From an uncultured Methanolobus sp. (GTDB taxonomy: Archaea; Halobacteriota; Methanosarcinia; Methanosarcinales; Methanosarcinaceae): DNA of 64,000 bases. Shown one piece after another: positions 1-31,476 of this stretch. The translations under genes were made by a program, and so were the position numbers. Within the stretch, counting starts at the first letter, position 1. Every line of letters starts with the position of its first letter. Location of the stretch: positions 832,001 through 896,000 of the forward strand of contig OY776215.1 in the NCBI GenBank assembly GCA_963675495.1, given 5' to 3'. The notes beneath the pieces were generated by a model. The model had not been told where the DNA came from. It saw only the letters and a program-made list of their open reading frames with translations, and did not search any database.

Positions 1-348
1 AAAGTAAGAAAAGGATGGATACGTGAGAAAAACATAGACCCTACTACCATACGTATGGCACATTATAACGATAAAAAGTGGGAAGAGTTACCTACCAGCA
101 AAGTAAGAGAAGAAGATGATTTCCTTTACTTCACAGCTGAAACACCCGGGTTCTCATTATTTAGTATCGTGGGTGATGAGGCAATAGAAGTTATCGATTA
201 TGTAGAAACTGTCGCAACAAAACCTGTTGATAAGGATATAAATGAACCTGAAACAACACAAGATAAGAACACTTCTGGATTCAGTGCACTGTCAGGATCG
301 ATCTTAGTATCTGTTGCTTTCCTTGTGAGCAGACGGCACCATAAATGA
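1..348 (+). CDS. PGF-pre-PGF domain cell-surface protein, C-terminal part (5'-truncated by window)
   Basis: Frame open from base 1; WEELPT...YFTAETPGFSLFSI motif followed by a C-terminal SGF-hydrophobic-basic sorting tail. Confidence 0.8.
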   Translation, partial: KVRKGWIREKNIDPTTIRMAHYNDKKWEELPTSKVREEDDFLYFTAETPGFSLFSIVGDEAIEVIDYVETVATKPVDKDINEPETTQDKNTSGFSALSGSILVSVAFLVSRRHHK

Positions 349-491
349 AGAAAGGGCATATCTGTCCTTTCAGTTATCTTTTTTTGATGAATATTGTTAG
401 GCTGTACTACGATATGTAACAGTTCCTGCTATAGTGCAACTCCCTACAATACCCAAAAAATTAATCATGGAAAGGAACTTTACCTGTATCC

Positions 492-1205
492 ATGAAAGAA
501 TTATACCTTACTGAATGTTACCTGAAAGAATTCGATGCAACGGTTGAGACTGTCAAGGATGACAAATTCGTAGTACTTGACAAAACAGCATTCTATCCAA
601 ATTCTGGTGGGCAGCCAAATGACACCGGAATTCTTGTAAGAGAGGACGGAACTGAATTCCCTGTAAGCTATGTTGCAAAATTCGATGGCAATATCAGCCA
701 TGAAGTCACATTACCGGGACTGAAGGCAGGAGACAGGGTAAAAGGAGTAATTGACTGGGAAAGAAGATACCGGTTCATGCAATACCACACTGCATGCCAT
801 ATACTGAGTGCCATAATACACAATGAGACAGGAGCAAAGATATCAGGCAACCAGTTAGGCGAAGAAAAGACACGAGTGGATTTCAACCTGGAGGACTTTG
901 ACAGGGAGCAGATAAAGTCCTACGAAGGCAAGGTCAATGAGATAATAGACCGCAATATACCTGTGAGTATTACCATTATGCCAAGGGATGAAGCGTTCAA
1001 GATCCCTTCTGTAGTTAAACTGAAAGATGCATTCCCTCCTGAAATAGAAGATATTAGAGTAATTAGCATCCCTGATGTGGATACACAGGCATGTGGTGGA
1101 ACCCACATGGCAAATACAGGCGATATACCCCACATCGAGATAATCAAAGCTGAGAATAAGGGGAAAAACAACAGAAGGGTATATTTCCGATTTATGGACA
1201 ACTGA
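492..1205 (+). CDS. alaXM: Alanyl-tRNA editing protein AlaX-M
   Basis: FYPNSGGQPND, HTACH and CGGTH zinc motifs; 237 aa. Confidence 0.92.
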   Translation: MKELYLTECYLKEFDATVETVKDDKFVVLDKTAFYPNSGGQPNDTGILVREDGTEFPVSYVAKFDGNISHEVTLPGLKAGDRVKGVIDWERRYRFMQYHTACHILSAIIHNETGAKISGNQLGEEKTRVDFNLEDFDREQIKSYEGKVNEIIDRNIPVSITIMPRDEAFKIPSVVKLKDAFPPEIEDIRVISIPDVDTQACGGTHMANTGDIPHIEIIKAENKGKNNRRVYFRFMDN

Positions 1206-1219
1206 GGGAATTACTTTAT

Positions 1220-3613
1220 CTAATCGTGAATATCCGGGTTGTACAGAGGAATGGACACGTGGACAACTGTACCAACGCCTTCCTCACTTTCAACCTCAAT
1301 TGTCCCGGAATGCAATTCCACAATATTCTTTGCAAGATAAAGACCCAGTCCATTACCCCCATGGATACGGGTGGCTGAACCATCAACCTGATAGAACCTG
1401 TCAAAAATCAGGTCCATACAGTTTTGTGGGATTCCCATCCCATGGTCACTTATGTCCACATGGATATTAGTAACATCTTCCTTGATCGAAATAGAGACTA
1501 TAGAGCCACGGGAAGAGAATTTTATTGCATTATCCAGAACATAAACAAAAAGATACTGTAGAAATTCGCAGTTACCATATACCAGATTCATATCAAACGA
1601 ATAATCGGTGTTTAGATAGATGTCCTTTTCTTCCACCTTGGTATGGAGGCTGCTTATAGAATTATCAAGAACTTCTTTAAGGTGAATTGGTGATAATACA
1701 TGATACTTTTCAAAGTAAAGAGAGTTCATGTTAAGCAAAGACTCTATTAACTGCTCAAGGCGTTCTGAATTAGAAACAACGATTTTCATACATTTTTTTT
1801 GTTTTTCATCAAGCTCACCAAGAAGTCCGTCATAAATAGCTTCACTATACCCTTTAATGGAGATGAGAGGTGTTTTGAGCTCATGGGTGATATTAGCTAC
1901 GAACTCATCTTTCATCCTGTCAAGAGATTTCAGCTCTTCGTATGCGTTTCTGGTTTCATCAACAAGACGAATATTCTCAACAGCGATACCAACCTGATGA
2001 CCTACGTTACCAAGTATTTCAAGATCAGTGTTTGAGATAATAGTCCCATCATCGGGGAACAATAATATGACACCAACCAGATCTTCACGGGAAATAACAG
2101 GAACAAAAACAAATCTTCCGGAATATTCATTCACGTTTAACTTTTTCAGGCTAGCCTGAATATCATTTGCCTTGTCTGTGACCAATGTGCTCTTCTTTAG
2201 ATCAGGAATGGTACGGAATAGAGGATCATCACAATTAATGCTATTTAATTCCTCATTTAGCTCTTCTTTTATTCCGCTCGATGAGCAAACATTAAAAGAC
2301 TTGTCCTGGGAACAACGAAGGCAAATTAAACCTGAATTGCACCCTACATAAGAAAGCAACTCAACAAGGACATCATCCAGAAAATCCTTCATTTCCAGTG
2401 AACTTGCAGCGATCAATGCCGTAGACTGCAGAATAAGCAGATTACGATTCTTTATTTGAAGGTCTTCTTCTGCAAGTGATATGTCAGTTACATCCTGGGT
2501 AGTTCCCCGAAAAAGAACTTGTTTGCCATTATTGTCCCATGTTACTTCACCAAGAGAATGAAGGATGCAAATTGAGCCGTTTTTCTTTATTACCCTGGTC
2601 CTAACTTCGAATTTATAACCATGAATCGAAAGTGCCTTGTCTAAGCATGAATTGAACAAACTGCGGTCGTTTGGATGTATGAGAGTAGAATAGAGATCCT
2701 TGGTAATTGATATTTCATTGGGTGAAAAGCCCATGATCCGATACATCTCATCAGACCAAAAATGCTTTTTAGTGCGCAGATCAATTTCCCAACTTCCTGT
2801 ATGTGATATTTCCTGTGCCCTTGTAAGTCTTTCTTTGTGTTCAACAATAGATTCCTGAGCTTTTTTTCGTTCTATACTGTCTACAAAAATATCGCCAATT
2901 ATCCTCATGAGTTTTATGTAATTTGGTGGCCATACCCTGTTCTGGCTAAAGGAATCAAAACCTAGAAAACCAATCAACAAACCATTGGATTGAAGAGGAA
3001 TAGACAGTGCAGACATAATTCCTGCTTTTTGCAAAGCTTCTTTTTCTTTGCTTGCCTCTGCCGGTAATTTTGATACATCTGGTATGTTTAGTATATCAGG
3101 ATCCCGTAGCCTCTCCATCCACCATGGGAAATCCCTTCCTGGTAGATTATCTACATGGATATTATCGATATTTTCCGCATGCCATTTGTATACTGTATCA
3201 TTTTCGTTTCGATATTTTGAGAAAAGTATTAAGTAACTGCGATCAGCACCGGCAAATTCAGCTATCTTCTTAAGAGAAAGACGGATTCCAGTGTCGATAT
3301 GCTCTGATTTCTTGCCAATGAAATAGGAAGAGATCTCTGCAACAATATTCTCAAATTTCAATTGTGAAAGTAGCTCGCTCTCAGCAGATTGACATTTTTG
3401 GGACATTTTTGAAACGGTCATACCAAACAAAAGGAAGCCGATGAAAACAAAGGACCGGACATAATTATCATAGAAAAATGCCTTTTGCGACAAAGAATTA
3501 GGCAAGTTGCTTGCATTTAGCAAGAAATGTACTAGGTAGGCATCCAGAATCCAAAATGCAAGACCAAATGAGATCGATACTAATACTATTCTTGCTTCTT
3601 TCTTCATATACAA
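1220..3613 (-). CDS. Membrane sensor histidine kinase (2 TM, GAF, PAS, GAF, HisKA, HATPase)
   Basis: HELKTPL H-box, DNAIKFS N-box, DHGMGI and GNGLGL G-boxes; GSWE...WSDE PAS motif. Confidence 0.9.
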   Translation of the reverse strand: MYMKKEARIVLVSISFGLAFWILDAYLVHFLLNASNLPNSLSQKAFFYDNYVRSFVFIGFLLFGMTVSKMSQKCQSAESELLSQLKFENIVAEISSYFIGKKSEHIDTGIRLSLKKIAEFAGADRSYLILFSKYRNENDTVYKWHAENIDNIHVDNLPGRDFPWWMERLRDPDILNIPDVSKLPAEASKEKEALQKAGIMSALSIPLQSNGLLIGFLGFDSFSQNRVWPPNYIKLMRIIGDIFVDSIERKKAQESIVEHKERLTRAQEISHTGSWEIDLRTKKHFWSDEMYRIMGFSPNEISITKDLYSTLIHPNDRSLFNSCLDKALSIHGYKFEVRTRVIKKNGSICILHSLGEVTWDNNGKQVLFRGTTQDVTDISLAEEDLQIKNRNLLILQSTALIAASSLEMKDFLDDVLVELLSYVGCNSGLICLRCSQDKSFNVCSSSGIKEELNEELNSINCDDPLFRTIPDLKKSTLVTDKANDIQASLKKLNVNEYSGRFVFVPVISREDLVGVILLFPDDGTIISNTDLEILGNVGHQVGIAVENIRLVDETRNAYEELKSLDRMKDEFVANITHELKTPLISIKGYSEAIYDGLLGELDEKQKKCMKIVVSNSERLEQLIESLLNMNSLYFEKYHVLSPIHLKEVLDNSISSLHTKVEEKDIYLNTDYSFDMNLVYGNCEFLQYLFVYVLDNAIKFSSRGSIVSISIKEDVTNIHVDISDHGMGIPQNCMDLIFDRFYQVDGSATRIHGGNGLGLYLAKNIVELHSGTIEVESEEGVGTVVHVSIPLYNPDIHD

Positions 3614-3961
3614 CCCTGCGATGAAAACAATTATTTTAGTATATTTAAATATCTAAATTGATTTTCATTGGCCAGATATCTTATTATTGAGTCTTTTATA
3701 TATATGTTCCTATTTATTACGGGAAAAAGTAAAATAGCTTTGCAATTGAATTCAACAATAATATGCATTTAAAAGGGTAAAGAGACAAGTATATGTAAAA
3801 TGGCGCATTTTCAAAATAGATTAAAATAGCTTGAAAAGAACTAGGGAAGCACAGGACGATACGTAGACAAATATAAAAGAGATAATTGTATTAGTCCTTT
3901 AACCACATTAAATCAAAATGCGTAATTGCTTATATTGCATTTATCTGCGGAGATATACAAA

Positions 3962-5533
3962 ATGAAAGTACTAGTTAGTGATCCATTATCAGAACAGGGA
4001 TTAACGATACTTCAACAACATTTCACAGTTGATGTCCTTACAGGACTTTCCGAAGAAGAGCTCGTTGAAAAGATACCAGAATATGACGCACTTGTTATCA
4101 GAAGTGGAACACAAGTTACAAGAAAGGTCATAGAGGCAGCTGACAGGCTGAAGATAGTAGGCAGGGCAGGAGTTGGAGTTGATAATATAGATGTAGAGGC
4201 AGCTACGGAAAAAGGAATAATAGTTGTCAATGCACCTGAAGGAAACATGCTCTCCGCGGCAGAACACACTATTGCAATGATGATGGCGCTGGCAAGGAAT
4301 GTGGCACAGGCCAATGAGTCGCTTAAGTCCAAAAAATGGGAGCGTAGCAAGTTCATGGGTATAGAGGTCAATGGTAAGATCCTTGGTGTGATCGGGCTGG
4401 GCCGAATTGGTGCTGAGGTTGCAAAAAGAGCACAGGGACTTAACATGGATATCTTAGCATACGATCCTTTTGTCTCAGATGAGAGAGCAGAGGAAATGGG
4501 TGTAAGAATGATGTCCGTGCATGAGATAGTGAAACAGGCTGACTTTATTACTGTTCATACACCACTTATCAAAGAGACCAGAAACATAATTGATGCTGAA
4601 GAGTTCGCTATGATGAAAAGCAACGCAAGGATAATCAATTGTGCACGTGGTGGGATCATCAATGAGGAAGCACTTGCTGATGCATTGAACACTAATAAAA
4701 TAGCAGGTGCTGCAATTGATGTGTTCGTCAATGAACCTCCTTTTGACAGCCCTCTTATTGATTGCAAGACCCTGATAGCTACACCACACCTTGGTGCTTC
4801 GACCAAGGAGGCACAGGTCAATGTCGCAGTTTCCGTGGCCGAAGAAGTAGTATCTGTACTTAACGGTGGACCTGCGAAAAGTGCTATCAATATACCATCG
4901 GTCAAACCAGAGATCATGACCATGCTTGCACCTTATATCCAGCTTGCTGAAACAATGAGCAGTGCATGTGCACAACTCCTTGGCAAGAACTATGAAAAGA
5001 TAGAAATATCGTACAACGGGGACATTGCTGAGAAAGATACACGACCAATAACTGTTGCTGCACTAAAAGGTATGCTCCAGGTCGCACTTGGTTCAGCTGT
5101 CAACTATGTTAACTCAAGCTCCCTTGCAAAATCAAGGAAGGTTGAAGTTGTTGAAAGTAAATCTGAAACTACAGAAGAATTCACTTCAACAATAAAAGTA
5201 GAGATCACAATGGATGAAGAGAAGGTATCGATCATAGGTACAGTAGTTGGTGGCAAAGGAAAGATCATCAACATCAACGGGGAACATGTTGATATGATAC
5301 CATCCGGATATATGATAGTAGCAAAACATATTAACAAACCTAACGTGATCGGACCCTGCTGCATAGTGCTTGGAAAGAACAACATAAATATATCTGGAAT
5401 GCAGGTTGGAAGAGCAGATATTGGCGGAACGACCATAATGGCACTTAATGTTGATTCAGAAGTTCCGGAATCAATACTAAAAGAGATGAGATCGGTCGAA
5501 GGAATAATTGATGCCAAACTCATTCAGCTATAA
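3962..5533 (+). CDS. serA: D-3-phosphoglycerate dehydrogenase
   Basis: GRAGVGVDN, GLGRIG, TPHLGAST, C-terminal ACT domain; ATG at 3962 preferred over the ORF-track start. Confidence 0.95.
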   Translation: MKVLVSDPLSEQGLTILQQHFTVDVLTGLSEEELVEKIPEYDALVIRSGTQVTRKVIEAADRLKIVGRAGVGVDNIDVEAATEKGIIVVNAPEGNMLSAAEHTIAMMMALARNVAQANESLKSKKWERSKFMGIEVNGKILGVIGLGRIGAEVAKRAQGLNMDILAYDPFVSDERAEEMGVRMMSVHEIVKQADFITVHTPLIKETRNIIDAEEFAMMKSNARIINCARGGIINEEALADALNTNKIAGAAIDVFVNEPPFDSPLIDCKTLIATPHLGASTKEAQVNVAVSVAEEVVSVLNGGPAKSAINIPSVKPEIMTMLAPYIQLAETMSSACAQLLGKNYEKIEISYNGDIAEKDTRPITVAALKGMLQVALGSAVNYVNSSSLAKSRKVEVVESKSETTEEFTSTIKVEITMDEEKVSIIGTVVGGKGKIININGEHVDMIPSGYMIVAKHINKPNVIGPCCIVLGKNNINISGMQVGRADIGGTTIMALNVDSEVPESILKEMRSVEGIIDAKLIQL

Positions 5534-5583
5534 TTCAGGCAAACAGAGATTTTGTTAAAATATAAAGGATGGTAGCAGTTTAA

Positions 5584-6066
5584 ATGATGCGAAAACGTAT
5601 ATATCATCGGTTTCCCCACAGGGATGTGGAGTTTGAACAGAAATACCGCTACCATTCGGACCTTCCTTTTTTTGTGAAAGTGATGGCAAACACGGACGGA
5701 AAATTCGGCATGTTTGTTACCGAGTCTGTTACCCAAAGAGGACATCGTATACAGGCAAAGAGGGAAATTGCTGTGGAAGTCGTAAGCAATGGCATCGATT
5801 TTTCCCCACTTAATTATGATACTGTAGATGAAGTACTGGATACCATTGAAAGAGAAGGAATTATGGATTTCAGGGTTCACTTGAGGTATAGTTATCTTGA
5901 CGGGAAGTATAATCGTGTACCATTTCGAGGTGACATATATCTTGTGAGAGCCATTCTCGAATATGAACTACTGGTGCTTCAGATAAATCATATAGACGGT
6001 CCAAAGAGAACAGAATGTGGCCGGGTTGCCGACACTATTATTGATGAGCTTCGAAGGGGTTCATGA
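5584..6066 (+). CDS. Hypothetical protein
   Basis: 160-aa ORF overlapping the next gene (ATGA); no recognised motif. Confidence 0.65.
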   Translation: MMRKRIYHRFPHRDVEFEQKYRYHSDLPFFVKVMANTDGKFGMFVTESVTQRGHRIQAKREIAVEVVSNGIDFSPLNYDTVDEVLDTIEREGIMDFRVHLRYSYLDGKYNRVPFRGDIYLVRAILEYELLVLQINHIDGPKRTECGRVADTIIDELRRGS

Positions 6067-6542
6067 TGGATGAATTGATGCTTGTAGCTGCAACCCCATT
6101 TAAAAGAAATAACAAGAGTTCACTTTCGATCAAGGATTTTGAATTCGTGCTCTCTTTTGACCTTAAGTGGATGGCACCTGATGTTGCATCAAAGGTCAGG
6201 GACAGGGCCATTGGAGCCCACTTGTTGAAATTTAGTGGGGCAGAATTAATTCCAAATTTTGACATAAGTACAATAGAGATACCACATGGTTTCAAGCCTT
6301 CAGAATCAATTTTCAAAGAGAGATCGACCATTGAGGATATAATCGCCCTGATAGTTGCAAATTGTGGAAAAAGTGCAAGGGATACAACTGCACTTATCAA
6401 TAAAAAACAAGAATTATTCGATGATCTTATAGATATAGAGGTTGCTGCCCTGCTAACAGCAAAAGAACTGGGATGTGACATAGAACCAATATACGATAAA
6501 GTGTATAACAATGTTTTTAGTAGTGACCAAAATCCCACATAA
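6063..6542 (+). CDS. DUF2240-family archaeal protein
   Basis: FEFVLSFDLKWMAP...IPHGFKP and C-terminal EVAALL.AKELG motifs. Confidence 0.75.
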   Translation: MMDELMLVAATPFKRNNKSSLSIKDFEFVLSFDLKWMAPDVASKVRDRAIGAHLLKFSGAELIPNFDISTIEIPHGFKPSESIFKERSTIEDIIALIVANCGKSARDTTALINKKQELFDDLIDIEVAALLTAKELGCDIEPIYDKVYNNVFSSDQNPT

Positions 6543-6676
6543 TCTTTATGTACTATTAGTGTTATTCAAGAGCAGTCTGATTCTACAGACAACTCATGTT
6601 CTTACTTAATTGACACCTAACGGATGTTCGAACGCATATAATGCGTGAGTGAGACATACTCTTGCGGAGGAACAAT

Positions 6677-7057
6677 ATGAGCAAGACTACACAAGTCAAA
6701 ATTGAAAGAAAGACAAACCCTCGCACTCCTGTGCTTATTGCAGCACTGAAGGAAGGGTCACGTCAGAATGAAGCTGCTATCTGGAGAGATGTGGCAAAGA
6801 GGTTGGAAAAGCCTGGAAGGAATTACGCACAGGTAAACCTCAGTAAGATCAACAGGTATGCAAAGGATGGAGAGACAGTCCTTATTGCAGGCAAAGTACT
6901 TGGATCAGGACTCCTTGATAAGGCAGTCACTGTTGCAGCATACAATTTCAGTGCAACTGCAATGGAAAAGATCACAGGTCTTGGCGGCAAATGCCTGACA
7001 ATAGAACAGATAATGGAAGAGAACCCGAAGGGATCTGGAATTAAGATCTTACAGTAG
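6677..7057 (+). CDS. rpl18e: 50S ribosomal protein L18e
   Basis: KTNP, VNLSKINRY, GKVLGSG motifs; GGAGG RBS before ATG 6677. Confidence 0.95.
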   Translation: MSKTTQVKIERKTNPRTPVLIAALKEGSRQNEAAIWRDVAKRLEKPGRNYAQVNLSKINRYAKDGETVLIAGKVLGSGLLDKAVTVAAYNFSATAMEKITGLGGKCLTIEQIMEENPKGSGIKILQ

Positions 7058-21567: not shown

Positions 21568-21639
21568 GCCTCTGTGGCTTAGCGGTATAGCGGCTGATTC
21601 GTAATCAGCAGGCCGAGGGTTCGAATCTCTCCAGGGGCT
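21568..21639 (+). tRNA. tRNA-Thr(CGT), integration target
   Basis: Cloverleaf: acceptor GCCTCTG/CAGGGGC, anticodon arm GCTGA-TTCGTAA-TCAGC, T-arm GAGGG-TTCGAAT-CTCTC; CCA not encoded. Confidence 0.95.
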
Positions 21640-21640
21640 T
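21624..21640 (+). repeat. att site (tRNA-proximal) of integrated element
   Basis: AATCTCTCCAGGGGCTT, 16/17 identical to 31460-31476. Confidence 0.9.
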
Positions 21641-21846
21641 GACATCACGGGGTTAAAAGCCCCCTTTTTCTTATATTGTAAGTATTATCAGTTCAAATAC
21701 CAATTATAAAAAAACAAAGGATGATTATTGAGAAAATTTTATGAAGGGTAGATTGTATTTTGGTTTGTATATTGTTATAGGCTTTTGGTTGAAATAAAAA
21801 TGTGGGATCATGAGTGATTCCACATTTTGTCCATGTTTTGTTTGTT

Positions 21847-23079
21847 TCAGGAAGAAGATGTTGGTACTGTCAATGGTATCCAGCGTATATCGCAATTTGC
21901 CGCATTTGTTTCTACTTTCCAAACATCATCTTTTCGCACAGGCATGGTAATTGATGCATACTTCATTTTCTTTGTTGGGTAAATACTATCAGCCACCACA
22001 AGTTCCATAGTGGAACCAGTGAAAGTGGAGCCTTCTACATATATGGTTTCTTTGTTCTTTTTAGGCATGTCAGTTGAAGATATATAACAAACAACAAATC
22101 CATCAGTTTCCGCTATATATTGACCACCTGCAACAAAGGAATCTTTGTCCCATTCTCCAAACTCTGGACTTTCGCCCTGTGGACCTTGCTCACCTTGTGG
22201 TCCTTGCTCACCTTGTGGACCTACTGGAATAGCAACTATTTGGTCTTGTAAATCATAAATACTATCCCATATTTCATAAATTGCCTTCCATAAACCACTT
22301 ATTTCTTTATCTGGATCAATGAAGTTGACGACATTGTAATTAATACCTGTATCAACAAATACAGAACTTGGGTAATTATTAATTGTGCCGAATGAATCCG
22401 GTTCTGCTGAAGTGCCAAGCGTGCAACTACTAATTAATATGCCATAATTGTTGATGATACCAGGGCCATAATCTGCATTATTGTTAAAAATGTTGTAATT
22501 TAGAATTGTGCCGGTATTATTTACAATTCCATAAGTATAGACATACATATAATTTGTAAAATTTCCATTGTTTTGAATCAATGTTTCACTAAAAATTGTG
22601 CCGTTGTTATTTAGTGACCCGTTTTCATAGTTATAAAGCATGCCATAGAAGTTAAATTTTTTATTATTGTTTATAATTCCGTAATTATGGAGACTTATTG
22701 TAGGCTCAATGTGTAGGAAATCGTTGTTCTCAAAAACACCAAAATTATAAAATTCACTTGATAAAAGCTCCATAGACCCATTGTTCAAAAATATACCGTG
22801 GTTATTCAGATTACCCACTATCATGAAGTGTCCGTCTGAACTGATTTCGAGCACCCCGTTCGGTTGGATGATAAGGCTACCTCCATTATTTAGTTCAAAC
22901 CGATCACCATGCACTATGAGACTTTCACCATCTTCAATTACAAGTGTGTCACCTGCGTTTATATACAGTTCATCACCAATATTAATTACACCTGGGTTTG
23001 TCAGATTTGTTGCGTTGGCAGTGCCTGCAAAAACAAGCATTAATGCTATTATTATAAAGAATAATCTATCCCTATTCAT
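21847..23079 (-). CDS. Secreted Asn-rich repeat / collagen-like fibre protein
   Basis: Signal peptide (..AGTANA), Asn/Gly-rich repeats, heptad segment, GPQGEQ repeats, small beta-rich C-terminal domain. Confidence 0.75.
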   Translation of the reverse strand: MNRDRLFFIIIALMLVFAGTANATNLTNPGVINIGDELYINAGDTLVIEDGESLIVHGDRFELNNGGSLIIQPNGVLEISSDGHFMIVGNLNNHGIFLNNGSMELLSSEFYNFGVFENNDFLHIEPTISLHNYGIINNNKKFNFYGMLYNYENGSLNNNGTIFSETLIQNNGNFTNYMYVYTYGIVNNTGTILNYNIFNNNADYGPGIINNYGILISSCTLGTSAEPDSFGTINNYPSSVFVDTGINYNVVNFIDPDKEISGLWKAIYEIWDSIYDLQDQIVAIPVGPQGEQGPQGEQGPQGESPEFGEWDKDSFVAGGQYIAETDGFVVCYISSTDMPKKNKETIYVEGSTFTGSTMELVVADSIYPTKKMKYASITMPVRKDDVWKVETNAANCDIRWIPLTVPTSSS

Positions 23080-23419
23080 ATTTATCACCATTTCATAATT
23101 ATTGAAAAAATATGTAAAAACATGTCCCCCTTAAAAAAATGTCTTTAAGTAAGTATATAAAATTATCCAAATGAACGTGTATTATTAAAAGTTATGAATA
23201 ATTCAAGCTCTGTAGAAAAACTACTTCTATTTTATTTTAGTATCACTATTTAAAAAGGATGACTCCCCTAAGGAATACTTATCACTAAAAGCACAAAGGG
23301 GATGAGTGTGTTTCGTCTAGTCAGTACTTAAATAATTGATTCATAAAAATCGCATTCAAAATCCTTCCTTCCTAAAAATAAAAAAAGATGCATTGCAAAT
23401 CAACGCATCAAAAACAAAC

Positions 23420-23668
23420 TTATCTAGAATTCTCACTTTTCAGCGATTCAAGTATTGAAAGAAGCTTAACACTCAACACCTCAAGATCCGAACCAAAGAG
23501 AGTGAAGTTCTCCCATCTGTTTGATTTCTTGTTGAACTTGGAGAACTGAAGCCATTTCACGCTTGAACCATCATCCTTTTTCTTTTCAGAGATTGAGACT
23601 GACGTATTTGCCAGGTGGATCTTTTCGCCTATCTGTCTAATTCCATATTCATTATATTCATTTGACAT
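23420..23668 (-). CDS. Small hypothetical protein, possibly PC4-like ssDNA-binding fold
   Basis: 82 aa; beta-strand pattern VSISEKK..VKWLQFSKF..WENFTL followed by a C-terminal helix. Confidence 0.6.
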   Translation of the reverse strand: MSNEYNEYGIRQIGEKIHLANTSVSISEKKKDDGSSVKWLQFSKFNKKSNRWENFTLFGSDLEVLSVKLLSILESLKSENSR

Positions 23669-24131
23669 TTTGAATTACCAATTAAACATTGAAATATCAA
23701 TACAAGAACATTTATAATTTCAATAAAAAGAGGACGCAAAAGTAATACAAAAACAATACTGTTTTTCACACTTGTCTACGATGCAGTAAATAATAGTCTG
23801 TTTCTTGGGTTTGGTTAGGATGTTCCTCACTTGCGCCCGCAGTGTTCGTCACATCATTTTTAGAGGGGAGTTTGGTATTTGACGGACAGAATTACTGCGC
23901 AACTCTGCCCTTTAAAGATGGTTGGTGCGTCAATGCGCCCTTTGGTCGCATTCACACTGAAAATTAGATTACTTGCAACTTACACTGACAGTTTGCAGGA
24001 CTTGCAGTCCCGGGGAGCAGAGTTTGTCGGCTCCCCTTCGTTCTAGTCTTGCTTTTGTTACGGGATTCTGCGAGGTGTAGCTAACTGGAAATATGCTCCG
24101 CATACTGTGGGGTTTCTGCGAAACCCCACTT

Positions 24132-24398
24132 TTACATATTGAAAACTTGAAAATGCCGGAAAGCATTTATGTTGTTTTCAAAGTGCTCACATGCTATGTC
24201 ATATGATTTCCAGGAACATGCATTCCCTAGAATTATATTCTTCAGTACTATATCGGGATGTAGATCACAGGATTGTGTTTCAATGAAAGATTGAACATTA
24301 TATGATGTCAATGCACCTGTTCTTTGTTCTTTACGATATTGATTGATCCTTTTGTATAGCTCTTGTTCACTTCTTATGAGAGTTTTGTCTTCATTCAT
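24132..24398 (-). CDS. Hypothetical protein
   Basis: 88-aa ATG ORF with an upstream TATA-like sequence; no recognised motif. Confidence 0.55.
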   Translation of the reverse strand: MNEDKTLIRSEQELYKRINQYRKEQRTGALTSYNVQSFIETQSCDLHPDIVLKNIILGNACSWKSYDIACEHFENNINAFRHFQVFNM

Positions 24399-24799
24399 GC
24401 AAAGTAGTATGTATCCTGTATATATTCTGATGAGCCAAGTGAGGTGAAAGTAATTTGTTGAACCTCTGTTTCATGTAAAAAGAATTTATGCAATATTTGG
24501 GTTAAAAATCACGGTAAAATCGGGTTGCATGTCAACTGTGGCACACACGCCTTAATCGTGTACCTAAGGGAACATTGGAAAAAAGCCACGGGCGCCGCGA
24601 AGCGGCGCGAGTGCTGGGTAGGTTGGATATTTTGAAGGATAAGAGGATTTAGTAAAAACAGTAGCAAGAGATTTTTGTACAAAATAATTAATAGTACACA
24701 AGAAAAACCATTTTCCACTAGAAATGATACTGCACCTGTTCTAGCTGAAATATCTAAAAGAAATATCTTTTTTGTATATTGATTAATGTGCTACTATTC

Positions 24800-26530
24800 T
24801 TACCGTATATCAACTTTAATTCCTAATAATTTATATTCATCTGATTTATCAGTTAAAGTTAATACTTTGTGTTTTGTAATCATTTCATCAAATTCGCTTT
24901 GATTCATGTGTTTTCTAATTTCATCAAGTTGATTTTGATTCACAGTTGCAATGTATTGCTTTTTAGAATTTGAAAATTTATCGTTTATGACCTTGAACAT
25001 GTCAGCTATTTGCCTCTCGTCAATATCCGAAAAAAGTCTACTGTCATGAAAAACAAAATCTATTTTATGTTTGTATCCTTCAAATAATATTGTCAAGTCG
25101 TAGCAAAAAATCTTGACATGATTTATACCATCAGAAGCATCTGATTCAATTTTTGCATCAATATCAAATCGCAATTGATTTGTTCCGTTATTGGGATCAA
25201 TTGTAATGCCAGCTACACTATCTGGATAGAATGTTTTCGCAAGACTCCTAAAAAAGTTTCTTAATATGACAATATCATCTCCAATATCTTCTAGATACTT
25301 GTCGGTAGTTTCAGCAGATTCCATAAACTCTTTTTTAATTTCTCTTTCTTTGGAGCTGCACTCCGCTTGTAGCAATTGATATTTTTTAATGTTTTCTCTT
25401 TCTAGCTCATATTCTGCTTTCTTACTATTAAGACTAACAAAAAGATCAAGTGCTTGATGGTCACCTAGATATTTCATAATACTATCGAGTTCTTTTTGCA
25501 ACTTCTCTATTTTCTTTTCTTTAGTTTGTATTTCTAATTTCAATCTGTTTTGCTGCTCACTTAATCTTCTTTTTCGATTTGATATCAACTTTTCATAGAA
25601 TTTTTCTAATTCGTCTAACTCTTTGACTAACATTTCGGAGAATTGTATTTTTGATTCTTGATAAACATTTAATATACTATTCTTGGACAAATCAGGTGAG
25701 AAATTTAAACTATTATTTACTTGTTCTAGATTATTTTGTAAAAGTATAATCTTATTATTTAGTACAAATAGTTCTTTTTCTACTTTATCTGCCTTCAGTT
25801 GGATATCTCTATAATCTTCTGCCACTTCAAATGTTTTTAAATTATCTTCCAATTGATTGATTCGGTCTTCTAATTCTACTAGTGTCAAAGCAGCATCTTT
25901 ATTCCCGGTAAAGAAATCTTTTAATAATGAATCATTTTTAAAAGTTTTCTTCAAATTATCCACAGAGTCTAATTCTTTTTTAAGCTCTGCTTTTTTTTGT
26001 ATCAGAGAAACATCTAATCCTAGTAAAAACGAATTGTACAGTAATGTCTGGTATTGTTTTCCAGTCTTTGCCGGTTGATCAAAATTTACATAAGATTCTT
26101 TTTTCGGTCGAACAAAAAAAGGAATTAAGCTTCTGAAAGAAAGATAAGAAATATTTTCAGGAATAACAAAACACAAAGAATCCATCTTCTTGTTAAATTT
26201 TAGAACCGACATTAATTCATCATTTAACACTATATCCTTTGGATTATTTGTAGTTCTTTTAACTGTATACGTTTCATTGCCTACCTTAAAATCAATGAAG
26301 AATTCCCAATCTTCTAATTTTTCACAAAAATCATTGTATCCTTTTTCAGCAGCTCCAAAACAAAAATGAATTATGCGGACTAAAAGAGATTTTCCTACTC
26401 CATTATAGGTTTTTCCTTTGTCATTGGATTCTGGATCATCCTGTTCTGCGACAATAAAGCTAGGTCCAGTTACATTAAATTCAACTGTCCTGAAGCTTTC
26501 TTTGTTCGAATAAACTTTCAACAAATGCAT
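24800..26530 (-). CDS. lmuB: Lamassu / ABC-3C SMC-like ATPase (DUF2326 type)
   Basis: Walker A TYNGVGKS, long coiled coil, DASDG signature, FVFHDSRLFSDIDERQ Walker B/D-loop, QYIATVN. Confidence 0.88.
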   Translation of the reverse strand: MHLLKVYSNKESFRTVEFNVTGPSFIVAEQDDPESNDKGKTYNGVGKSLLVRIIHFCFGAAEKGYNDFCEKLEDWEFFIDFKVGNETYTVKRTTNNPKDIVLNDELMSVLKFNKKMDSLCFVIPENISYLSFRSLIPFFVRPKKESYVNFDQPAKTGKQYQTLLYNSFLLGLDVSLIQKKAELKKELDSVDNLKKTFKNDSLLKDFFTGNKDAALTLVELEDRINQLEDNLKTFEVAEDYRDIQLKADKVEKELFVLNNKIILLQNNLEQVNNSLNFSPDLSKNSILNVYQESKIQFSEMLVKELDELEKFYEKLISNRKRRLSEQQNRLKLEIQTKEKKIEKLQKELDSIMKYLGDHQALDLFVSLNSKKAEYELERENIKKYQLLQAECSSKEREIKKEFMESAETTDKYLEDIGDDIVILRNFFRSLAKTFYPDSVAGITIDPNNGTNQLRFDIDAKIESDASDGINHVKIFCYDLTILFEGYKHKIDFVFHDSRLFSDIDERQIADMFKVINDKFSNSKKQYIATVNQNQLDEIRKHMNQSEFDEMITKHKVLTLTDKSDEYKLLGIKVDIR

Positions 26531-26763
26531 TTTTTTATTACACCGTCCTGCTCAATAACGGCCCCTATGGAATAGAGAAAAACGATTGTGAGTAAAAAAC
26601 TATCAAAATTATGCTTCGCATGATATATTTTATTTTGATAATCATTCTGATATTTATCCCATAAATTATCAATAGGTTTTGATGATTCTAATTGAGTCAA
26701 AATGTAGCTGCCAAAACCCAGCAAAGATTCTGAAAAATTAGTGTGCTTAGTTGGAAGGATCAT
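26518..26763 (-). CDS. lmuC: Lamassu / ABC-3C middle component
   Basis: 81 aa MILPTKH...SLLG...FLYSIG; overlaps both neighbours. Confidence 0.82.
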   Translation of the reverse strand: MILPTKHTNFSESLLGFGSYILTQLESSKPIDNLWDKYQNDYQNKIYHAKHNFDSFLLTIVFLYSIGAVIEQDGVIKKCIC

Positions 26764-27671
26764 TACATTTCTCCTTTGAGAGGTTCTTCAAATATATCAC
26801 ATGTTTCAAAATACTTTGCCATAATTACAATAACTGATATTTCATATATTTGTTCTGCTTTTGGACTTGCACATTTAACAATTGCCCAAAATAATTCGTC
26901 CCCACAACTATTCTTTTTTTCTTGGATGTAGATTTCATTCATTTTATCCCGCAAAGAATCTGCAAGGAAATCACTATTATTTTTCAAATAATTTTCTAAA
27001 GAATGCAACTGAATGCATCCATTGTTAAGGAATCTAGACACATATTTAGATAGATTGTTAAACTCTATTTTTTCATCCCAATCTGGCAATTTTACTTCAG
27101 GCTTATCATCTTTTGGTAAAGGTAATGTCATTATATATGAAATTATTTCGCGGAGTATTGAGTAATCTAATTGTTTTATCTTAGCAGGATCAGGAATAAA
27201 TCCTGCTATCATTCCTATCTGATCATCAGCAAGCTCAAAAAGCATATTTTCAAGGTCTTTTGCAGTCATAAATCCTGCATAATCAAGATTATGTGATGTC
27301 CTTATGTCTTGAATTATTTTTTCAGAGTCAGGATTTACACCTTTGTACTTGTCATTGACTACAAAATAAAATTGTTTTACTGGTCCCCATTGTTTATTTA
27401 AACCTGCGAAATCTGTTTTTAGTTTATTGACAATGTCTGTGTAGGATTTTCTTATATCCTCAGGAGCAAATACCTGAAAATATATGCATTTAGATTTTAT
27501 GTAACCATCATTTTTTCTGTCACCGATGTTTCCCCATGGCTTTATCTGCTGAAAATCTGGTTCTGTATAATTCATAATTGCACTGAATATATCTTCAAAT
27601 ATTTGTCCATCAGCTTTTAAGATTTTGTTTTGAAACAAATATCTAGTTAATGTTCTTTCTTGAACGTCCAT
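26763..27671 (-). CDS. lmuA: Lamassu effector: PD-(D/E)XK-type nuclease with ABC-3C C-terminal domain
   Basis: FEDIF...PWGNIGDRKNDGY...YFQVFAP nuclease-like core; KIEFNNLS and YFETCDIFE C-terminal motifs. Confidence 0.82.
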   Translation of the reverse strand: MDVQERTLTRYLFQNKILKADGQIFEDIFSAIMNYTEPDFQQIKPWGNIGDRKNDGYIKSKCIYFQVFAPEDIRKSYTDIVNKLKTDFAGLNKQWGPVKQFYFVVNDKYKGVNPDSEKIIQDIRTSHNLDYAGFMTAKDLENMLFELADDQIGMIAGFIPDPAKIKQLDYSILREIISYIMTLPLPKDDKPEVKLPDWDEKIEFNNLSKYVSRFLNNGCIQLHSLENYLKNNSDFLADSLRDKMNEIYIQEKKNSCGDELFWAIVKCASPKAEQIYEISVIVIMAKYFETCDIFEEPLKGEM

Positions 27672-27961
27672 TCTATTGCACCTATGCTGAATTATGGAAC
27701 CGTGTAATCTGTATTATGCAGTTTACTTAAAAACAATACACTATTATCAAATATACTTCTATATAATAAATAATGATAATTTCATTTTTAAGCTGCCGAC
27801 ACAAATTTTATCTGAAGGTTTATACTATGAACTTAAACTTAAAATTTGCGATTTCATTCATAAGCACATCAAAATGGCAAGAGTTTATAATAATGCAATT
27901 TAACTATGAATATTTACAATTATGTGTTCTATATATCTTATTTTTTGATAGCTCACGCTCT

Positions 27962-29407
27962 TCAGATTACTCTGCTATACCTCATAGTATTGTAATTTGA
28001 CCTGACTGCAATACCACGCCAAATTCCAAGTTCTTTGAACTCTTTCGCTAGCTGTTTAGCCTGTCTGTAAGTATCAACTACAATAGGTTCTTGGTCAGGA
28101 GTGTGGCGAGACTTAATTAATTTCAGGTTCTTTTTACGTTCCTTGAAAGGACGGATTACTCCGGAATCTACGAAGACGTGGCCGAATATCTTTTTGAAGC
28201 CTATGTTAAAGTCTGAACAGAAGTTGATGAGAGGATCTTTTGCTTTTTCCCATAGGCGTTTAGTTTTGAAGAATACCTTTGTGCAGTGTTCGCGGGCTGT
28301 GTCCAGGGTACCTTCGGATTTCCAGTAATTGATGTAGCGCCATAGGGAACGCTCGGGGATTTCTGTTTGTTCCTGGATGTCTCGGAAGTCTGCGCATCCT
28401 TCAGATTGAAGGGCAATGAATGCCAGGGCTTTAATGGCCTGCATGTTCTTGCCAAAGTCGATGTTCTCATCTTGAGAAGATTGATTATTATAGTTCCATT
28501 TTGGGAGATCATAGCGATATTCAAAGACCTTTTCAGCATCGAAGTAATTGTCTGATACGTATTCTATGGGAGAGATGAAGTTAAGAAGGGAGAACAGGAG
28601 TTTATCGAGGTCTTTTTTCAGGGAGAGGAATTCATTGATAGAGGGATTTTGTTTTGAATCGGATTTGAGGAAGACCTCAAGTTTTGGGTGTCTTAGGGGA
28701 TCTTCTGGTCTGCGGTCCAGGAAGTTTTTTATACGGTAGGATTTGACGCTGTGTTGATATTCGGTTTTTATGTTGCAGGCGGAGAAGTCGGGATTATCCA
28801 GTTTGTACATGTCGTATTTACCGGACCTTAGATTTTTGACAAGTTTTGAATCTCCACGCATGGAGGATTCATATTCTATTGCCTGGAGCATTGTTACCAG
28901 GTCATGTTCGTGTCGTTCATGACAACGTATGTGTCTGGCCATCTGGTATATTGTGGACCTTGAACGGTCTATCATGTGGCGGAAGCGTGAAGCTCCCAGA
29001 AAGTCCATGAATTCAAAGATGATGTCAAAGTGTTCGTCAAGGTCGATATAAGAGGACTGGATATGAATTTGAGTTCCTATTGATGGAAGGTTAAGGATCT
29101 TTCCTGATTTTGTTTTTGTGCCTGCTCCAAATAGGGGTTTTATGGTGTAGGTGCATTTTGATGCTCCTTCTTTATCGGTCCATTGGAGCATGTACTCAAA
29201 GGCGAGTTTCTTTGTTTTGGGATTGTAGAGGCCGCCTTGTTTGGGCCAGAACTTGAAGTTACGGTCACCTATCTTGATATGATGGTTATAGCTATCAGTT
29301 ACATTGTTAGAGAAGTAACTGACAACTGTATAATAGAAGTCCAGGTCTGTTATATGTAAATAACAGCCGAACTCATGGGTGACGGGTTCCGGGAACTTAT
29401 GAACCAT
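27962..29407 (-). CDS. Putative replication initiator resembling the conserved betapleolipovirus/haloarchaeal-plasmid protein, with C-terminal wHTH
   Basis: Recalled motif series HEF, GGL, EY, IKP, ARHIR, VKSY, DPLRHPKL; HTH RDIQEQTEIPERSLWRYI. Confidence 0.6.
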   Translation of the reverse strand: MVHKFPEPVTHEFGCYLHITDLDFYYTVVSYFSNNVTDSYNHHIKIGDRNFKFWPKQGGLYNPKTKKLAFEYMLQWTDKEGASKCTYTIKPLFGAGTKTKSGKILNLPSIGTQIHIQSSYIDLDEHFDIIFEFMDFLGASRFRHMIDRSRSTIYQMARHIRCHERHEHDLVTMLQAIEYESSMRGDSKLVKNLRSGKYDMYKLDNPDFSACNIKTEYQHSVKSYRIKNFLDRRPEDPLRHPKLEVFLKSDSKQNPSINEFLSLKKDLDKLLFSLLNFISPIEYVSDNYFDAEKVFEYRYDLPKWNYNNQSSQDENIDFGKNMQAIKALAFIALQSEGCADFRDIQEQTEIPERSLWRYINYWKSEGTLDTAREHCTKVFFKTKRLWEKAKDPLINFCSDFNIGFKKIFGHVFVDSGVIRPFKERKKNLKLIKSRHTPDQEPIVVDTYRQAKQLAKEFKELGIWRGIAVRSNYNTMRYSRVI

Positions 29408-29444
29408 GTGTTTGCAAGAGCTTATTTTGTCTCACAACTTTGCA

Positions 29445-29648
29445 TTAAAAACTATTATTTTTGTTCGGTTCATAGGGTTGAATTATGGCATGTAATCCAT
29501 TTTCATCCATGTATAATTCGTATTTTACGCAGTCAATTACTAGACTCCCATCAGGATCAACAATACCCAAAGCAAAAGCAACTTTTTGGGGTAATGTTAT
29601 GTTCAGACGGCCACCGTTTTCCTTGATACGGTATCCTGTTTTTCCCAT
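29445..29648 (-). CDS. AbrB/SpoVT-like small DNA-binding protein
   Basis: RIKENGGRLNITLPQKVAFALGI matches the AbrB pattern. Confidence 0.65.
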   Translation of the reverse strand: MGKTGYRIKENGGRLNITLPQKVAFALGIVDPDGSLVIDCVKYELYMDENGLHAIIQPYEPNKNNSF

Positions 29649-29893
29649 TAGATCAAACCCCTTGACCTTTTGAGCTCATCCAGCGTTATTTCCCCACGTC
29701 TTACAGGTTCAAGAAGTTCATTCAACTTTTCTTTTGCGAGCTTATCGATTTTAAGCATCACTTTTTTAGAGGGAGACAAATGGTTTAAAAATTCATCATC
29801 AAAAGTACTATCGTCAATAATAGATTGCTTTAAAGATTTTAATTGTGTATTTATACGAAACATCTCCAGAGAGTTTCGTAAAAAAGGATGCAC
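29648..29893 (-). CDS. Hypothetical protein
   Basis: 81 aa, GTG start after AGGTG, TAATG coupling to the AbrB-like gene. Confidence 0.55.
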   Translation of the reverse strand: MHPFLRNSLEMFRINTQLKSLKQSIIDDSTFDDEFLNHLSPSKKVMLKIDKLAKEKLNELLEPVRRGEITLDELKRSRGLI

Positions 29894-29931
29894 AGTTGTG
29901 CACCTTCTGGAGTTTTCTTTTATTCTATTGC

Positions 29932-30112
29932 GGCTTCTCTTCTTTTTGGCTATCTTTATTATCGGCTTTTTATTCTAGGCTTTATTATTGGCATTTTCTT
30001 TTTGGCTTTTCATTTTGGGATTTTTACCCTTTCTTGTCTTCGCCTTATTTTTTGCCTTTCTTATTTTGCCTTTTTCTCTCGCCTTTCTTATATTAGCCTT
30101 CTATTTTTTGCC
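29932..30112. repeat. Mirror-arranged array: 6xGGC, GGG/CCC, 6xGCC separated by T-rich spacers
   Basis: Read directly from the sequence; triplets recur every 12-16 nt. Confidence 0.8.
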
Positions 30113-30174
30113 TTTGGTTCTTATTCTTCATATCCTTTGAAGATAACCTTTTTTACAAGAGTACCTTGAACCTA

Positions 30175-30192
30175 TAGATATATAAACTTTTC
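30175..30192 (-). promoter_or_regulatory. BRE/TATA promoter of the ORF81-abrB-rep operon
   Basis: Minus strand GAAAAGTTTATATA matches the archaeal BRE-TATA consensus. Confidence 0.55.
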
Positions 30193-30246
30193 TAATTTTC
30201 ATACGAAGAGTGCTATTATGTCTCGCAAACCGTGCTATTTATCATC

Positions 30247-31419
30247 TTAGATAGTCATATTTCGCAAAGCCTCATTGACCTTTGCGTTAACCAAGTCATC
30301 TAAGTTTGCGTCAAGAATCTTGGATATTGCATCTTCTATTGGTTGTGATTTCTCTTCTATTTCAAGTGCAGTTTTTAGTGTTAACACTGAACCACAATTG
30401 TAGCAGAACATGTTGTTTGGAGTGTTAAGTGTCTTGCACCTGGGGCACTTGTGCACTTTTGACTTATTCTCTTCTTCTTCGATTTCAACACCGTTTGCCC
30501 TCAGTACAGCATCATCGACATCACGTCCGGATAAGTGAACATATACTGATGGAACATCTGAACCTTGTATCCATCCAAAATAGGCATTCATCTGTGCCTC
30601 TGTTAAGTGATTAGCCATAAATGTAGCTCGGCTATGCCTGAATAAGTGAGCGTGAATTCTTTTGTTTACACCTGCATTTTTGGCTATCTTTTTGAGCTGC
30701 TTAGTAATAGCGGCATAACCTATCATGGTAGAAGTGTTAGCTTTATTTCTATCAAAGTTCCACCATAATGGTGCATCTGGATTATCCCTTTCAGGATGCT
30801 GTTCAAGCCAAGACATTAAAAGGCGAACAGAATAAAAAAGAAGTACAGTACGATGTCCTGTCTTACCATCAACCCTTATTTTCATGCCTTCGTCAGCGTG
30901 CATTATATGTTTTATTTTTAAATTACCAATTTCACCAATCCGACAACCAGAATCCCATAAAATAGCTATAATAGCTTGATCCCTTATGCTGCGTGTTGAT
31001 TCAATCATTTTATTGACATCATCTTCTGTTAGCAACTCTTCGGGTAACTTGCGCCCCTTGCTCTTCTTTGTTGCCTTGAAGAATGCAATGATTTCAGGCT
31101 CTTTTCCACCATTCAACCATCGATAAAATTTCTTTAATGTTACTGCATAGTCGTGCCGCGTATCTTCACTTTCTGTTCTATCCCTAACGGCAATAAGCAC
31201 ATCTTCTATGTCAGTCTTTGTTGCTTCATCCAATGGCTTGTCATTCATCATAAGAGCAATTTGCTTCAAGGTGCTAACATATTTCATTTTCCTGAAATCC
31301 GTCATACCTTCAATATCACACTGTCTTACAAACTTCTTTATATGCTGAATATTGGAATCGGATATTTTCCCATCAAGCCCAGAAATCCTTTTTTTGAGAT
31401 TGTGATTGTAAAGTGCCAT
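30247..31419 (-). CDS. int: Tyrosine integrase with C-terminal zinc ribbon (SNJ2-like type, inferred)
   Basis: SGCRIGE, DGKTG, HLFRHSR, FGW...VYVHL catalytic set; CPRC...CYNC. Confidence 0.92.
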   Translation of the reverse strand: MALYNHNLKKRISGLDGKISDSNIQHIKKFVRQCDIEGMTDFRKMKYVSTLKQIALMMNDKPLDEATKTDIEDVLIAVRDRTESEDTRHDYAVTLKKFYRWLNGGKEPEIIAFFKATKKSKGRKLPEELLTEDDVNKMIESTRSIRDQAIIAILWDSGCRIGEIGNLKIKHIMHADEGMKIRVDGKTGHRTVLLFYSVRLLMSWLEQHPERDNPDAPLWWNFDRNKANTSTMIGYAAITKQLKKIAKNAGVNKRIHAHLFRHSRATFMANHLTEAQMNAYFGWIQGSDVPSVYVHLSGRDVDDAVLRANGVEIEEEENKSKVHKCPRCKTLNTPNNMFCYNCGSVLTLKTALEIEEKSQPIEDAISKILDANLDDLVNAKVNEALRNMTI

Positions 31420-31439
31420 AGTACATAATTGGATTAAGG

Positions 31440-31453
31440 GCTTATAACCTTTA
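31440..31453 (-). promoter_or_regulatory. TATA box of leaderless integrase transcript
   Basis: Minus strand AAAGGTTATAAG about 25 nt upstream of the ATG, inside the att boundary. Confidence 0.5.
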
Positions 31454-31459
31454 GGTAAA

Positions 31460-31476
31460 AATCCCTCCAGGGGCTT
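31460..31476 (+). repeat. Distal att site (displaced original tRNA-Thr 3' end)
   Basis: AATCCCTCCAGGGGCTT followed by a T-run; CCCTC pairs perfectly with the T-stem GAGGG. Confidence 0.9.

Follow-up and report, generated by a model that had tools for sequence, protein, structure and literature searches.

A three-gene operon in a methanogenic archaeon

We analyzed a 64,000-nucleotide (nt) stretch of DNA from an uncultured Methanolobus sp., referred to here as the window, and focused on a three-gene operon that appears to encode an ABC-three-component (ABC-3C) defense system. The source genome is one contig of 2.87 Mb. A TFIIB gene lies in the window and the genome contains an mcrA match above the cut-off, so the host is a methanogenic archaeon. 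The nearest named homologues of the operon proteins come from Methanolobus sp. ZRKC5 (ATPase 72% and effector 77% identical, annotated as "ABC-three component system protein"), and a methanogenic host is also what had been proposed from the letters alone, in what we call the original prediction. The operon consists of three genes, listed with the lengths of their products in amino acids (aa):

26763..27671, minus strand: effector gene, an open reading frame (ORF) of 302 aa, with a predicted nuclease-fold N-domain and CTD10
26518..26763, minus strand: middle component gene, 81 aa, Pfam MC6
24800..26530, minus strand: ATPase gene, 576 aa, a coiled-coil ABC ATPase of the DUF2326/YydD family and the presumed DNA sensor

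In the ORF list, all three genes are adjacent and co-directional, running from effector to middle component to ATPase along the minus strand. They occupy exactly the interval 24800..27671 in which the original prediction had placed three coupled genes. The effector and the middle component genes share 1 nt in the junction TAATG, and the middle component and ATPase genes overlap by 13 nt, which is the geometry of translational coupling. The predicted AT richness is also borne out: the GC content is 0.299 in the operon, 0.368 in the remainder of its integrative element, and 0.411 in the part of the window beyond that element. Each ORF is as long as its homologues are (303, 80-81, and 575-578 aa, respectively), and none of the three has an internal stop. 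The domain matches are beyond chance, by Pfam E-values and PADLOC PDC-M68B, and the operon is intact.

The ATPase and the middle component

The C terminus of the ATPase matches Pfam DUF2326 (PF10088) with an E-value of 1.5e-32, above the curated cut-off, and PADLOC PDC-M68B matches it over its full length (E 4.7e-90). NCBIfam had nothing further above cut-off for the operon proteins. Among 8000 candidates scored, 994 cluster representatives were homologues at E<=0.001. The best 120 are 56-74% identical, and homologues carry names such as "DUF2326 domain-containing protein" and "YydD (DUF2326 family)". In the structural model (pLDDT 88.4), N- and C-terminal halves of a head are joined by long helices from about residue 174 to 434. 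This predicts an ABC ATPase with a coiled-coil insert, similar to SMC and Rad50, as ABC-3C systems have. A Foldseek search with the model gave Bacillus subtilis YydD as the best match (9a6c_A, E 4.7e-24, TM 0.63). Next came an archaeal Smc head with coiled coil, LmuB of the LmuAB complex (4.3e-12), Salmonella LmuACB (4.7e-11), Vibrio cholerae type II LmuACB (6.1e-11), cohesin, and Rad50. In a further comparison, the model was nearest to YydD and next to the solved LmuB chains, with Rad50 and SMC heads behind them.

The original prediction had credited this protein with all ATPase motifs. Walker A (T41-Y-N-G-V-G-K47-S48) is conserved, as are a signature-like S463-D464-x-S466-x-G468 that precedes a helix and Walker B (F492-V-F-H-D496-S497). 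The Walker B motif has the form hhhhDS and lacks the catalytic Glu. Short LmuB proteins are described as having the Walker B pattern hhhhD[Q/S/T/E] (10.1101/2025.04.02.646746), and S497 following D496 fits it. The alignment has no conserved His at the H-loop position, where this protein has N531, and the assignment of the Q-loop to Y160-Q161 is uncertain. With no H-loop His and an unsure Q-loop, the claim of a complete motif set was slightly too generous.

The 81-aa protein matches Pfam MC6 (PF20293) over profile positions 1-76 of 76 (E 6e-16, 58.6 bits versus a cut-off of 27.2). A protein of this kind is placed between effector and ATPase in related loci. Invariant positions in its alignment are M1, P4, K6, S13, D32, and L63. 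No PADLOC model matched the 81-aa middle component.

The effector and its putative, noncanonical nuclease domain

Residues 173-295 of the effector match Pfam CTD10 (PF20275; E 2e-14, 54.7 bits versus a cut-off of 28.1). PADLOC PDC-M68A also matches the effector (E 6e-13), in the C-terminal domain (CTD) only, at residues 164-296. A search for homologues returned 1317 at E<=0.001; the best 120 are 65-77% identical, and some are named "ABC-three component system protein." We used 78 diverse homologues (30-77% identity) for the effector alignment and as input for AlphaFold2. The model has a mean pLDDT of 91. A linker of low confidence at residues 168-170 separates its two domains:

27192..27671, minus strand: effector N-domain, residues 1-160, with a predicted PD-(D/E)xK (restriction-endonuclease-like) fold
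26787..27155, minus strand: effector CTD10 helical bundle, residues 173-295 (PF20275), with model helices at 199-204, 209-220, 222-232, 234-252, 257-268, and 274-289

When Foldseek is run with the whole effector model, chain B of YYDD-YYDB, an integrative model in the PDB (9a6c), comes first, with an E-value of only 9e-3. The best fold matches of the N-domain are DNA endonucleases, namely FokI, LlaBIII, and Avs4. CTD10 is carried by all 78 members of the effector family, and no Pfam family covers the N-domain in any of them.

The conserved set of the N-domain consists of E/Q26, D51, N54, D55, G56, Q66, P70, K83, N106, and D107. Across the 78 effectors, D51, D55, G56, P70, and K83 are invariant, position 26 is always E or Q, and Q66, N106, and D107 are each found in 77. 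The position of the canonical (D/E)xK Lys is residue 68 (Q66-V-F68 here). It is occupied by Tyr, Phe, His, or Trp, and by Lys in 0 of 78. The label "nuclease-like" given in the original prediction is supported by the predicted fold and by the conserved acidic residues, with an active site that appears noncanonical.

The replacement of the canonical Lys by Phe or Tyr raises the question of whether the effector is a DNase at all. It might instead cut RNA, nick special structures only, or merely bind nucleic acid, with an outcome unlike that of Cap4-type Lamassu. The invariant D51, D55, and K83, together with the nearly invariant Q66, N106, and D107, argue for a working metal-dependent site with a relocated Lys, and the best fold matches are enzymes that cut DNA. 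We consider a non-DNase effector quite unlikely.

This N-domain is abundant, with 1248 cluster representatives at E<=0.001. It also occurs at the N terminus of two metagenomic NACHT NTPases (P0257 and P0282), with 54-63% identity over about 160-200 residues. In distant MC6/DUF2326 operons, in which the ATPase is 27-29% identical, SMEK_N takes the place of the N-domain; SMEK is a listed effector of short Lamassu (10.1101/2025.04.02.646746). The NACHT fusion and the replacement by SMEK_N fit an exchangeable effector module, and the N-domain appears, from these sequence matches, to be common to two classes of immune sensor, SMC-like (ABC-3C) and NACHT.

A kinship of the N-domain with SMEK was considered and not retained. 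A domain-atlas lookup with residues 1-165 scored SMEK_N at 0.87 and Mrr_cat at 0.85, neither of which counts as more than a lead, and hhalign against an SMEK_N effector covered only the linker and the start of the CTD (probability 61%).

Classification among known systems

The gene order, a middle component of an MC family, a CTD behind a variable N-domain, and a coiled-coil ABC ATPase are the features of ABC-3C systems, and all are found here. The deduced order of nuclease-like effector, small middle component, and SMC-like ATPase is also that of the original prediction; it is supported by Pfam CTD10, MC6, and DUF2326, by the predicted PD-(D/E)xK fold, and by an ATPase fold near YydD and LmuB. 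By its sequence, the cassette belongs to the ABC-3C systems, in the CTD10-MC6-DUF2326 subtype, and we count it in the Lamassu superfamily in the broad sense of that name. ABC-3C systems are counted within that superfamily (PMC10586767; 10.1101/2025.06.23.660979; 10.1101/2025.04.02.646746), and one published detection scheme automatically took in operons with ABC-3C domains beside an LmuB homologue.

The name Lamassu applies only in this broad sense because PADLOC v2 assigns the operon to the candidate system PDC-M68. The original prediction had named Lamassu outright and looked to PADLOC for that call, which returned PDC-M68 instead. The ABC-3C Pfam families and the fold bear out the wider assignment; the narrower one has an LmuB match of E 2e-12 and no LmuA or LmuC match. 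The agreement with CTD10-MC6-DUF2326/PDC-M68 extends to all three Pfam families, the full-length PDC-M68B match, and the gene order. The PDC-M68A model covers the CTD only, so the nuclease N-domain here differs from that of the model.

Comparison with characterized systems places the cassette further. Type II, or short, Lamassu (V. cholerae DdmABC and Salmonella enterica LmuACB) has the same architecture of effector, middle component, and SMC-like ATPase, with no detectable sequence match between the operon proteins and the solved chains. A specific Lamassu feature found here is the standard Walker A combined with the deviant Walker B of short LmuB. In V. cholerae, LmuA is reported to carry CTD7, and LmuC is MC3 (10.1101/2025.06.23.660979; PMC11707656). 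CTD10 and MC6 are sister families of these. Solved Lamassu has a Cap4/DUF4297 nuclease, whereas the effector here is not Cap4/DUF4297 and is without the canonical Lys. In the mechanism proposed below, the cassette would work like the solved Cap4-type systems; it is not their close relative. B. subtilis YydD-YydB (9a6c) is the top fold match of both models, but YydB has 481 aa versus 302 aa for the effector and a different N-terminal enzyme, which we take to be a phosphoesterase. NACHT/Avs-type NTPases have the same N-domain with a STAND NTPase sensor in the same polypeptide, whereas here the sensor is a separate SMC-like ATPase with an adaptor.

Conservation and distribution of the cassette

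We surveyed loci with one genome per species, which gave 77 distinct ATPase-family loci, and looked for partners with family profiles built here. The full order of effector, middle component, and ATPase is present in 66 of them. As labeled in their records, seven loci come from archaea (Methanothrix, Methanosarcinales, ANME-2, Methanosarcinaceae twice, "Ca. Methanovorans," and an uncultured archaeon), and the remainder are bacterial, from many phyla. The 11 incomplete loci include four in which no more than 635 nt separate the ATPase from a contig end and one with room for the middle component only before the contig edge. Two others have SMEK_N effectors, one has an effector split into two ORFs, and one has a CTD only. 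The last two are L046 and L065.

L046 comes from a Clostridiales metagenome-assembled genome (MAG). At the effector position (L046:3552-5771), a large serine recombinase (Resolvase, Recombinase, and Zn ribbon) and CTD10 form a single in-frame fusion. The probable cause is a mobile-element insertion into the effector gene.

Over 64 loci, pairwise identities of the three proteins co-vary with r of 0.88-0.92. Thus, the three genes are inherited as a unit, which speaks to co-inheritance and not to binding. We then built a quick maximum-likelihood tree of 67 ATPases, leaving out 10 rows with split or truncated ATPases. The archaeal label requires at least three changes on this tree. Five Methanosarcinales/Methanothrix rows form one clade, with a support of 100, that arises from among Desulfobacterales, Brocadiaceae, and Nitrospirota rows. 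The ATPase of the window branches by itself within the large group that also holds this clade.

The distribution bears on whether the ATPase could be a housekeeping factor, similar to Rad50/SbcC, that serves repair or chromosome maintenance with two accessory proteins. Its presence is patchy: of the genomes searched, only 6 of 120 from the same family and 1 of 19 others from the same genus gave a match. On the tree, archaeal copies are interspersed with bacterial ones, and no Mre11/SbcD-like partner accompanies the gene. The low GC content, the location on an integrative element, and a Walker B without the catalytic Glu also speak against a housekeeping role, which we regard as very improbable.

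Homologues with 25-35% identity were found in 63 plasmid records. A tblastn search of a phage collection gave no match, and a search of plasmid DNA gave a single chance-like match of 105 nt.

An integrative element in tRNA-Thr carries the operon

The operon is cargo of a tyrosine-integrase element of about 9.85 kb (21641-31476) inserted in tRNA-Thr. The features that define this element are as follows:

21568..21639, plus strand: tRNA-Thr(CGT), the integration target (ARAGORN; Rfam, 65 bits)
21624-21640, plus strand: attL, the tRNA-Thr 3' end (direct repeat D6, 17 nt)
27962..29407, minus strand: DUF7845 protein, 481 aa, an element backbone gene (Pfam DUF7845, E 1.7e-27; PHROG "transcriptional regulator," E 2e-17)
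30247..31419, minus strand: tyrosine integrase, 390 aa (Pfam Phage_integrase, E 1.8e-18; PHROG integrase, E 1e-24)
31460..31476, plus strand: attR, a copy of the tRNA-Thr 3' end with 16 of 17 nt identical, 41 nt beyond the integrase gene

The backbone of the element consists of the integrase, the DUF7845 protein, and small ORFs. Another genome of the same genus, G003, has homology to the right flank that starts exactly at the attR repeat. There, two elements stand in tandem behind the tRNA-Thr. The one that comes first is syntenic with the element of the window, with identities of 98% for an 82-aa ORF, 72% for the ATPase, 81% for the middle component, 77% for the effector, and 90% each for the DUF7845 protein and the integrase. 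The second has a different integrase (39%), a DUF7845 protein at 84%, and no cassette. In a third genome, G019, a fragment of DUF7845 adjoins tRNA-Thr and the genome has no match to the ATPase; the cassette is thus a dispensable, optional cargo of the element family. A DUF7845 protein seems to be the hallmark of a family of Methanolobus-type integrative elements. We also looked for an empty site. In four same-genus genomes without an ATPase match (G019, G054, G062, and G070), the two flanks of the element do not lie side by side. Because no empty site is demonstrable, we define the boundary of the element by the repeat and by the G003 junction.

The original prediction had placed the operon on a hairpin-rich, probably rolling-circle element. 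This is not supported. No Rep- or HUH-like protein is found among the ORFs of the element with Pfam and PHROGs, and the short inverted repeats of the element are unremarkable. Sites with a hairpin and a T-run number 13, versus 4.6 +/- 2.4 in shuffles, a modest enrichment. A search with Rfam across the window found tRNA only. With a tyrosine integrase and a 17-nt tRNA-Thr repeat in place, an integrase element is preferred. Since a hairpin-rich rolling-circle element is not supported, the further idea that the system must avoid attacking its own element has no basis here.

This location suggests another beneficiary. With the same biochemistry, the cassette might serve the mobile element, as a module for competition between elements or for addiction that excludes rivals or penalizes loss of the element. 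The operon lies inside an integrase element, G003 has retained it in a syntenic element at that site beside a 90% identical backbone, related DUF7845 elements occupy the same site in G019, and family members occur on 63 plasmids. However, the DUF7845 fragment of G019 stands without an ATPase match, which makes the cassette dispensable, and service to the element is compatible with defense of the host. We consider a primarily element-serving role unlikely and retain host defense as the preferred reading.

Other features of the element and of the window

Two noncoding features flank the operon:

27672..27961, minus strand: AT-rich intergenic stretch 5' of the effector gene, the presumed promoter region, with no same-strand ORF inside
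24586..24613, minus strand: G+C-rich hairpin with a T-run, a candidate transcript end (terminator-like site scan; inverted repeat I11)

The candidate terminator hairpin follows the stop codon of the ATPase gene at a distance of about 190 nt. A 118-nt noncoding stretch that holds this GC-rich hairpin (24516-24633) is 91.5% identical to part of the second, cassette-free element of G003. It is single copy in the genome and folds no better than shuffles (z of -1.25). This stretch may serve as a terminator or as a site specific to the element.

The element also encodes a 414-aa protein (21847-23091, minus strand) that starts with a hydrophobic segment in its N-terminal part and also has Asn-rich repeats and a short run of collagen-like GPQGEQ triplets. 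It has no Pfam family, its weak matches to PHROG "tail fiber" fall on the triplet run only, and it is missing from the element of G003.

When 26 additional ORFs of the window were compared with the PADLOC models, no second system turned up in the neighborhood. A 943-aa helicase (52430-55261, minus strand) matches PADLOC BrxHI with an E-value of 1.6e-106 and also SngC. No partner genes matched, and so the helicase is probably of the Lhr type rather than part of a defense system.

A proposed mechanism

We conclude, with a probability of roughly 80%, that the cassette is an intact defense system of the ABC-3C/short-Lamassu type, CTD10-MC6-DUF2326 subtype, carried as cargo of a tRNA-Thr element in a Methanolobus-like methanogen, and that its mechanism can be modeled on solved Lamassu. 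Each mechanistic step is less certain than the assignment to defense systems.

By published accounts, in Salmonella LmuACB the C-terminal oligomerization domain of LmuA is sequestered by two LmuB and LmuC, and released LmuA is a tetramer in which two nuclease domains form an active site (10.1101/2025.03.14.643221). Type I and type II complexes are described as centering on an LmuB dimer, with a composition of A1B2C1, and as being activated by DNA ends (10.1101/2025.06.23.660979). The reported trigger of DdmABC is palindromic sequences, predicted to form hairpins (PMC11707656). On this model, a dimer of the ATPase and the 81-aa MC6 protein would hold the effector by its CTD10, keeping the nuclease domain monomeric and inactive. 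The ATPase would bind aberrant DNA of an invading virus or plasmid, such as free ends, hairpins, or stalled replication intermediates. ATP-driven engagement of the heads would then release the effector, which would oligomerize through CTD10, and its domain of PD-(D/E)xK fold would cut nucleic acid. As a result, the infection would be aborted or the foreign element eliminated, possibly at the cost of the cell.

Several observations weigh against this reading. The PADLOC LmuA and LmuC models match neither the effector nor the 81-aa protein, and the LmuB match of the ATPase is weak (E 2.1e-12). None of the solved Lamassu chains was matched in PDB sequence or profile searches, so that the link to them comes through fold searches only. 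Catalysis by the effector and its substrate are uncertain because the nuclease motif is without the canonical Lys. One archaeal locus, L065 (Methanosarcinaceae MAG, 1-6904), has 6 kb of sequence upstream of the ATPase, yet the profiles detected no MC6 or effector there. Its ATPase is 62% identical and cut by the contig end, and the locus may be a partner-less or rearranged copy. Finally, in the literature searched, we found no published test of the CTD10-MC6-DUF2326 subtype, of PDC-M68 by name, or of defense by DUF2326/YydD.

A broader, composite proposal is tentative, and we hold it to be doubtful as a whole. In it, the N-domain would be a distinct, unnamed branch of the PD-(D/E)xK fold, with a rearranged active site (D51, D55, Q66, and a Lys on helix 77-95), common to ABC-3C and NACHT sensors. 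The cassette would have entered Methanosarcinales from bacteria more than once and would now move in the tRNA-Thr element family.

Significance

Lamassu systems have already been reported in archaea (10.1101/2025.04.02.646746, in seven archaeal genomes; PMC10586767), and Pfam, PADLOC, and NCBI annotation already include the subtype. The cassette is an ordinary further member. Its value is as a clean, intact archaeal example of Lamassu/ABC-3C on a well-delimited element in a complete methanogen genome, and it extends the catalog rather than opening a question. A modestly useful point is that the nuclease-fold N-domain has no Pfam model despite its abundance and its reuse in NACHT proteins. A defense assay would validate a widespread candidate system. 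If the cassette is functional in a histone-bearing archaeon, this would mean that sensing of DNA ends or hairpins of the Lamassu type operates on the chromatin of archaea and against their viruses.

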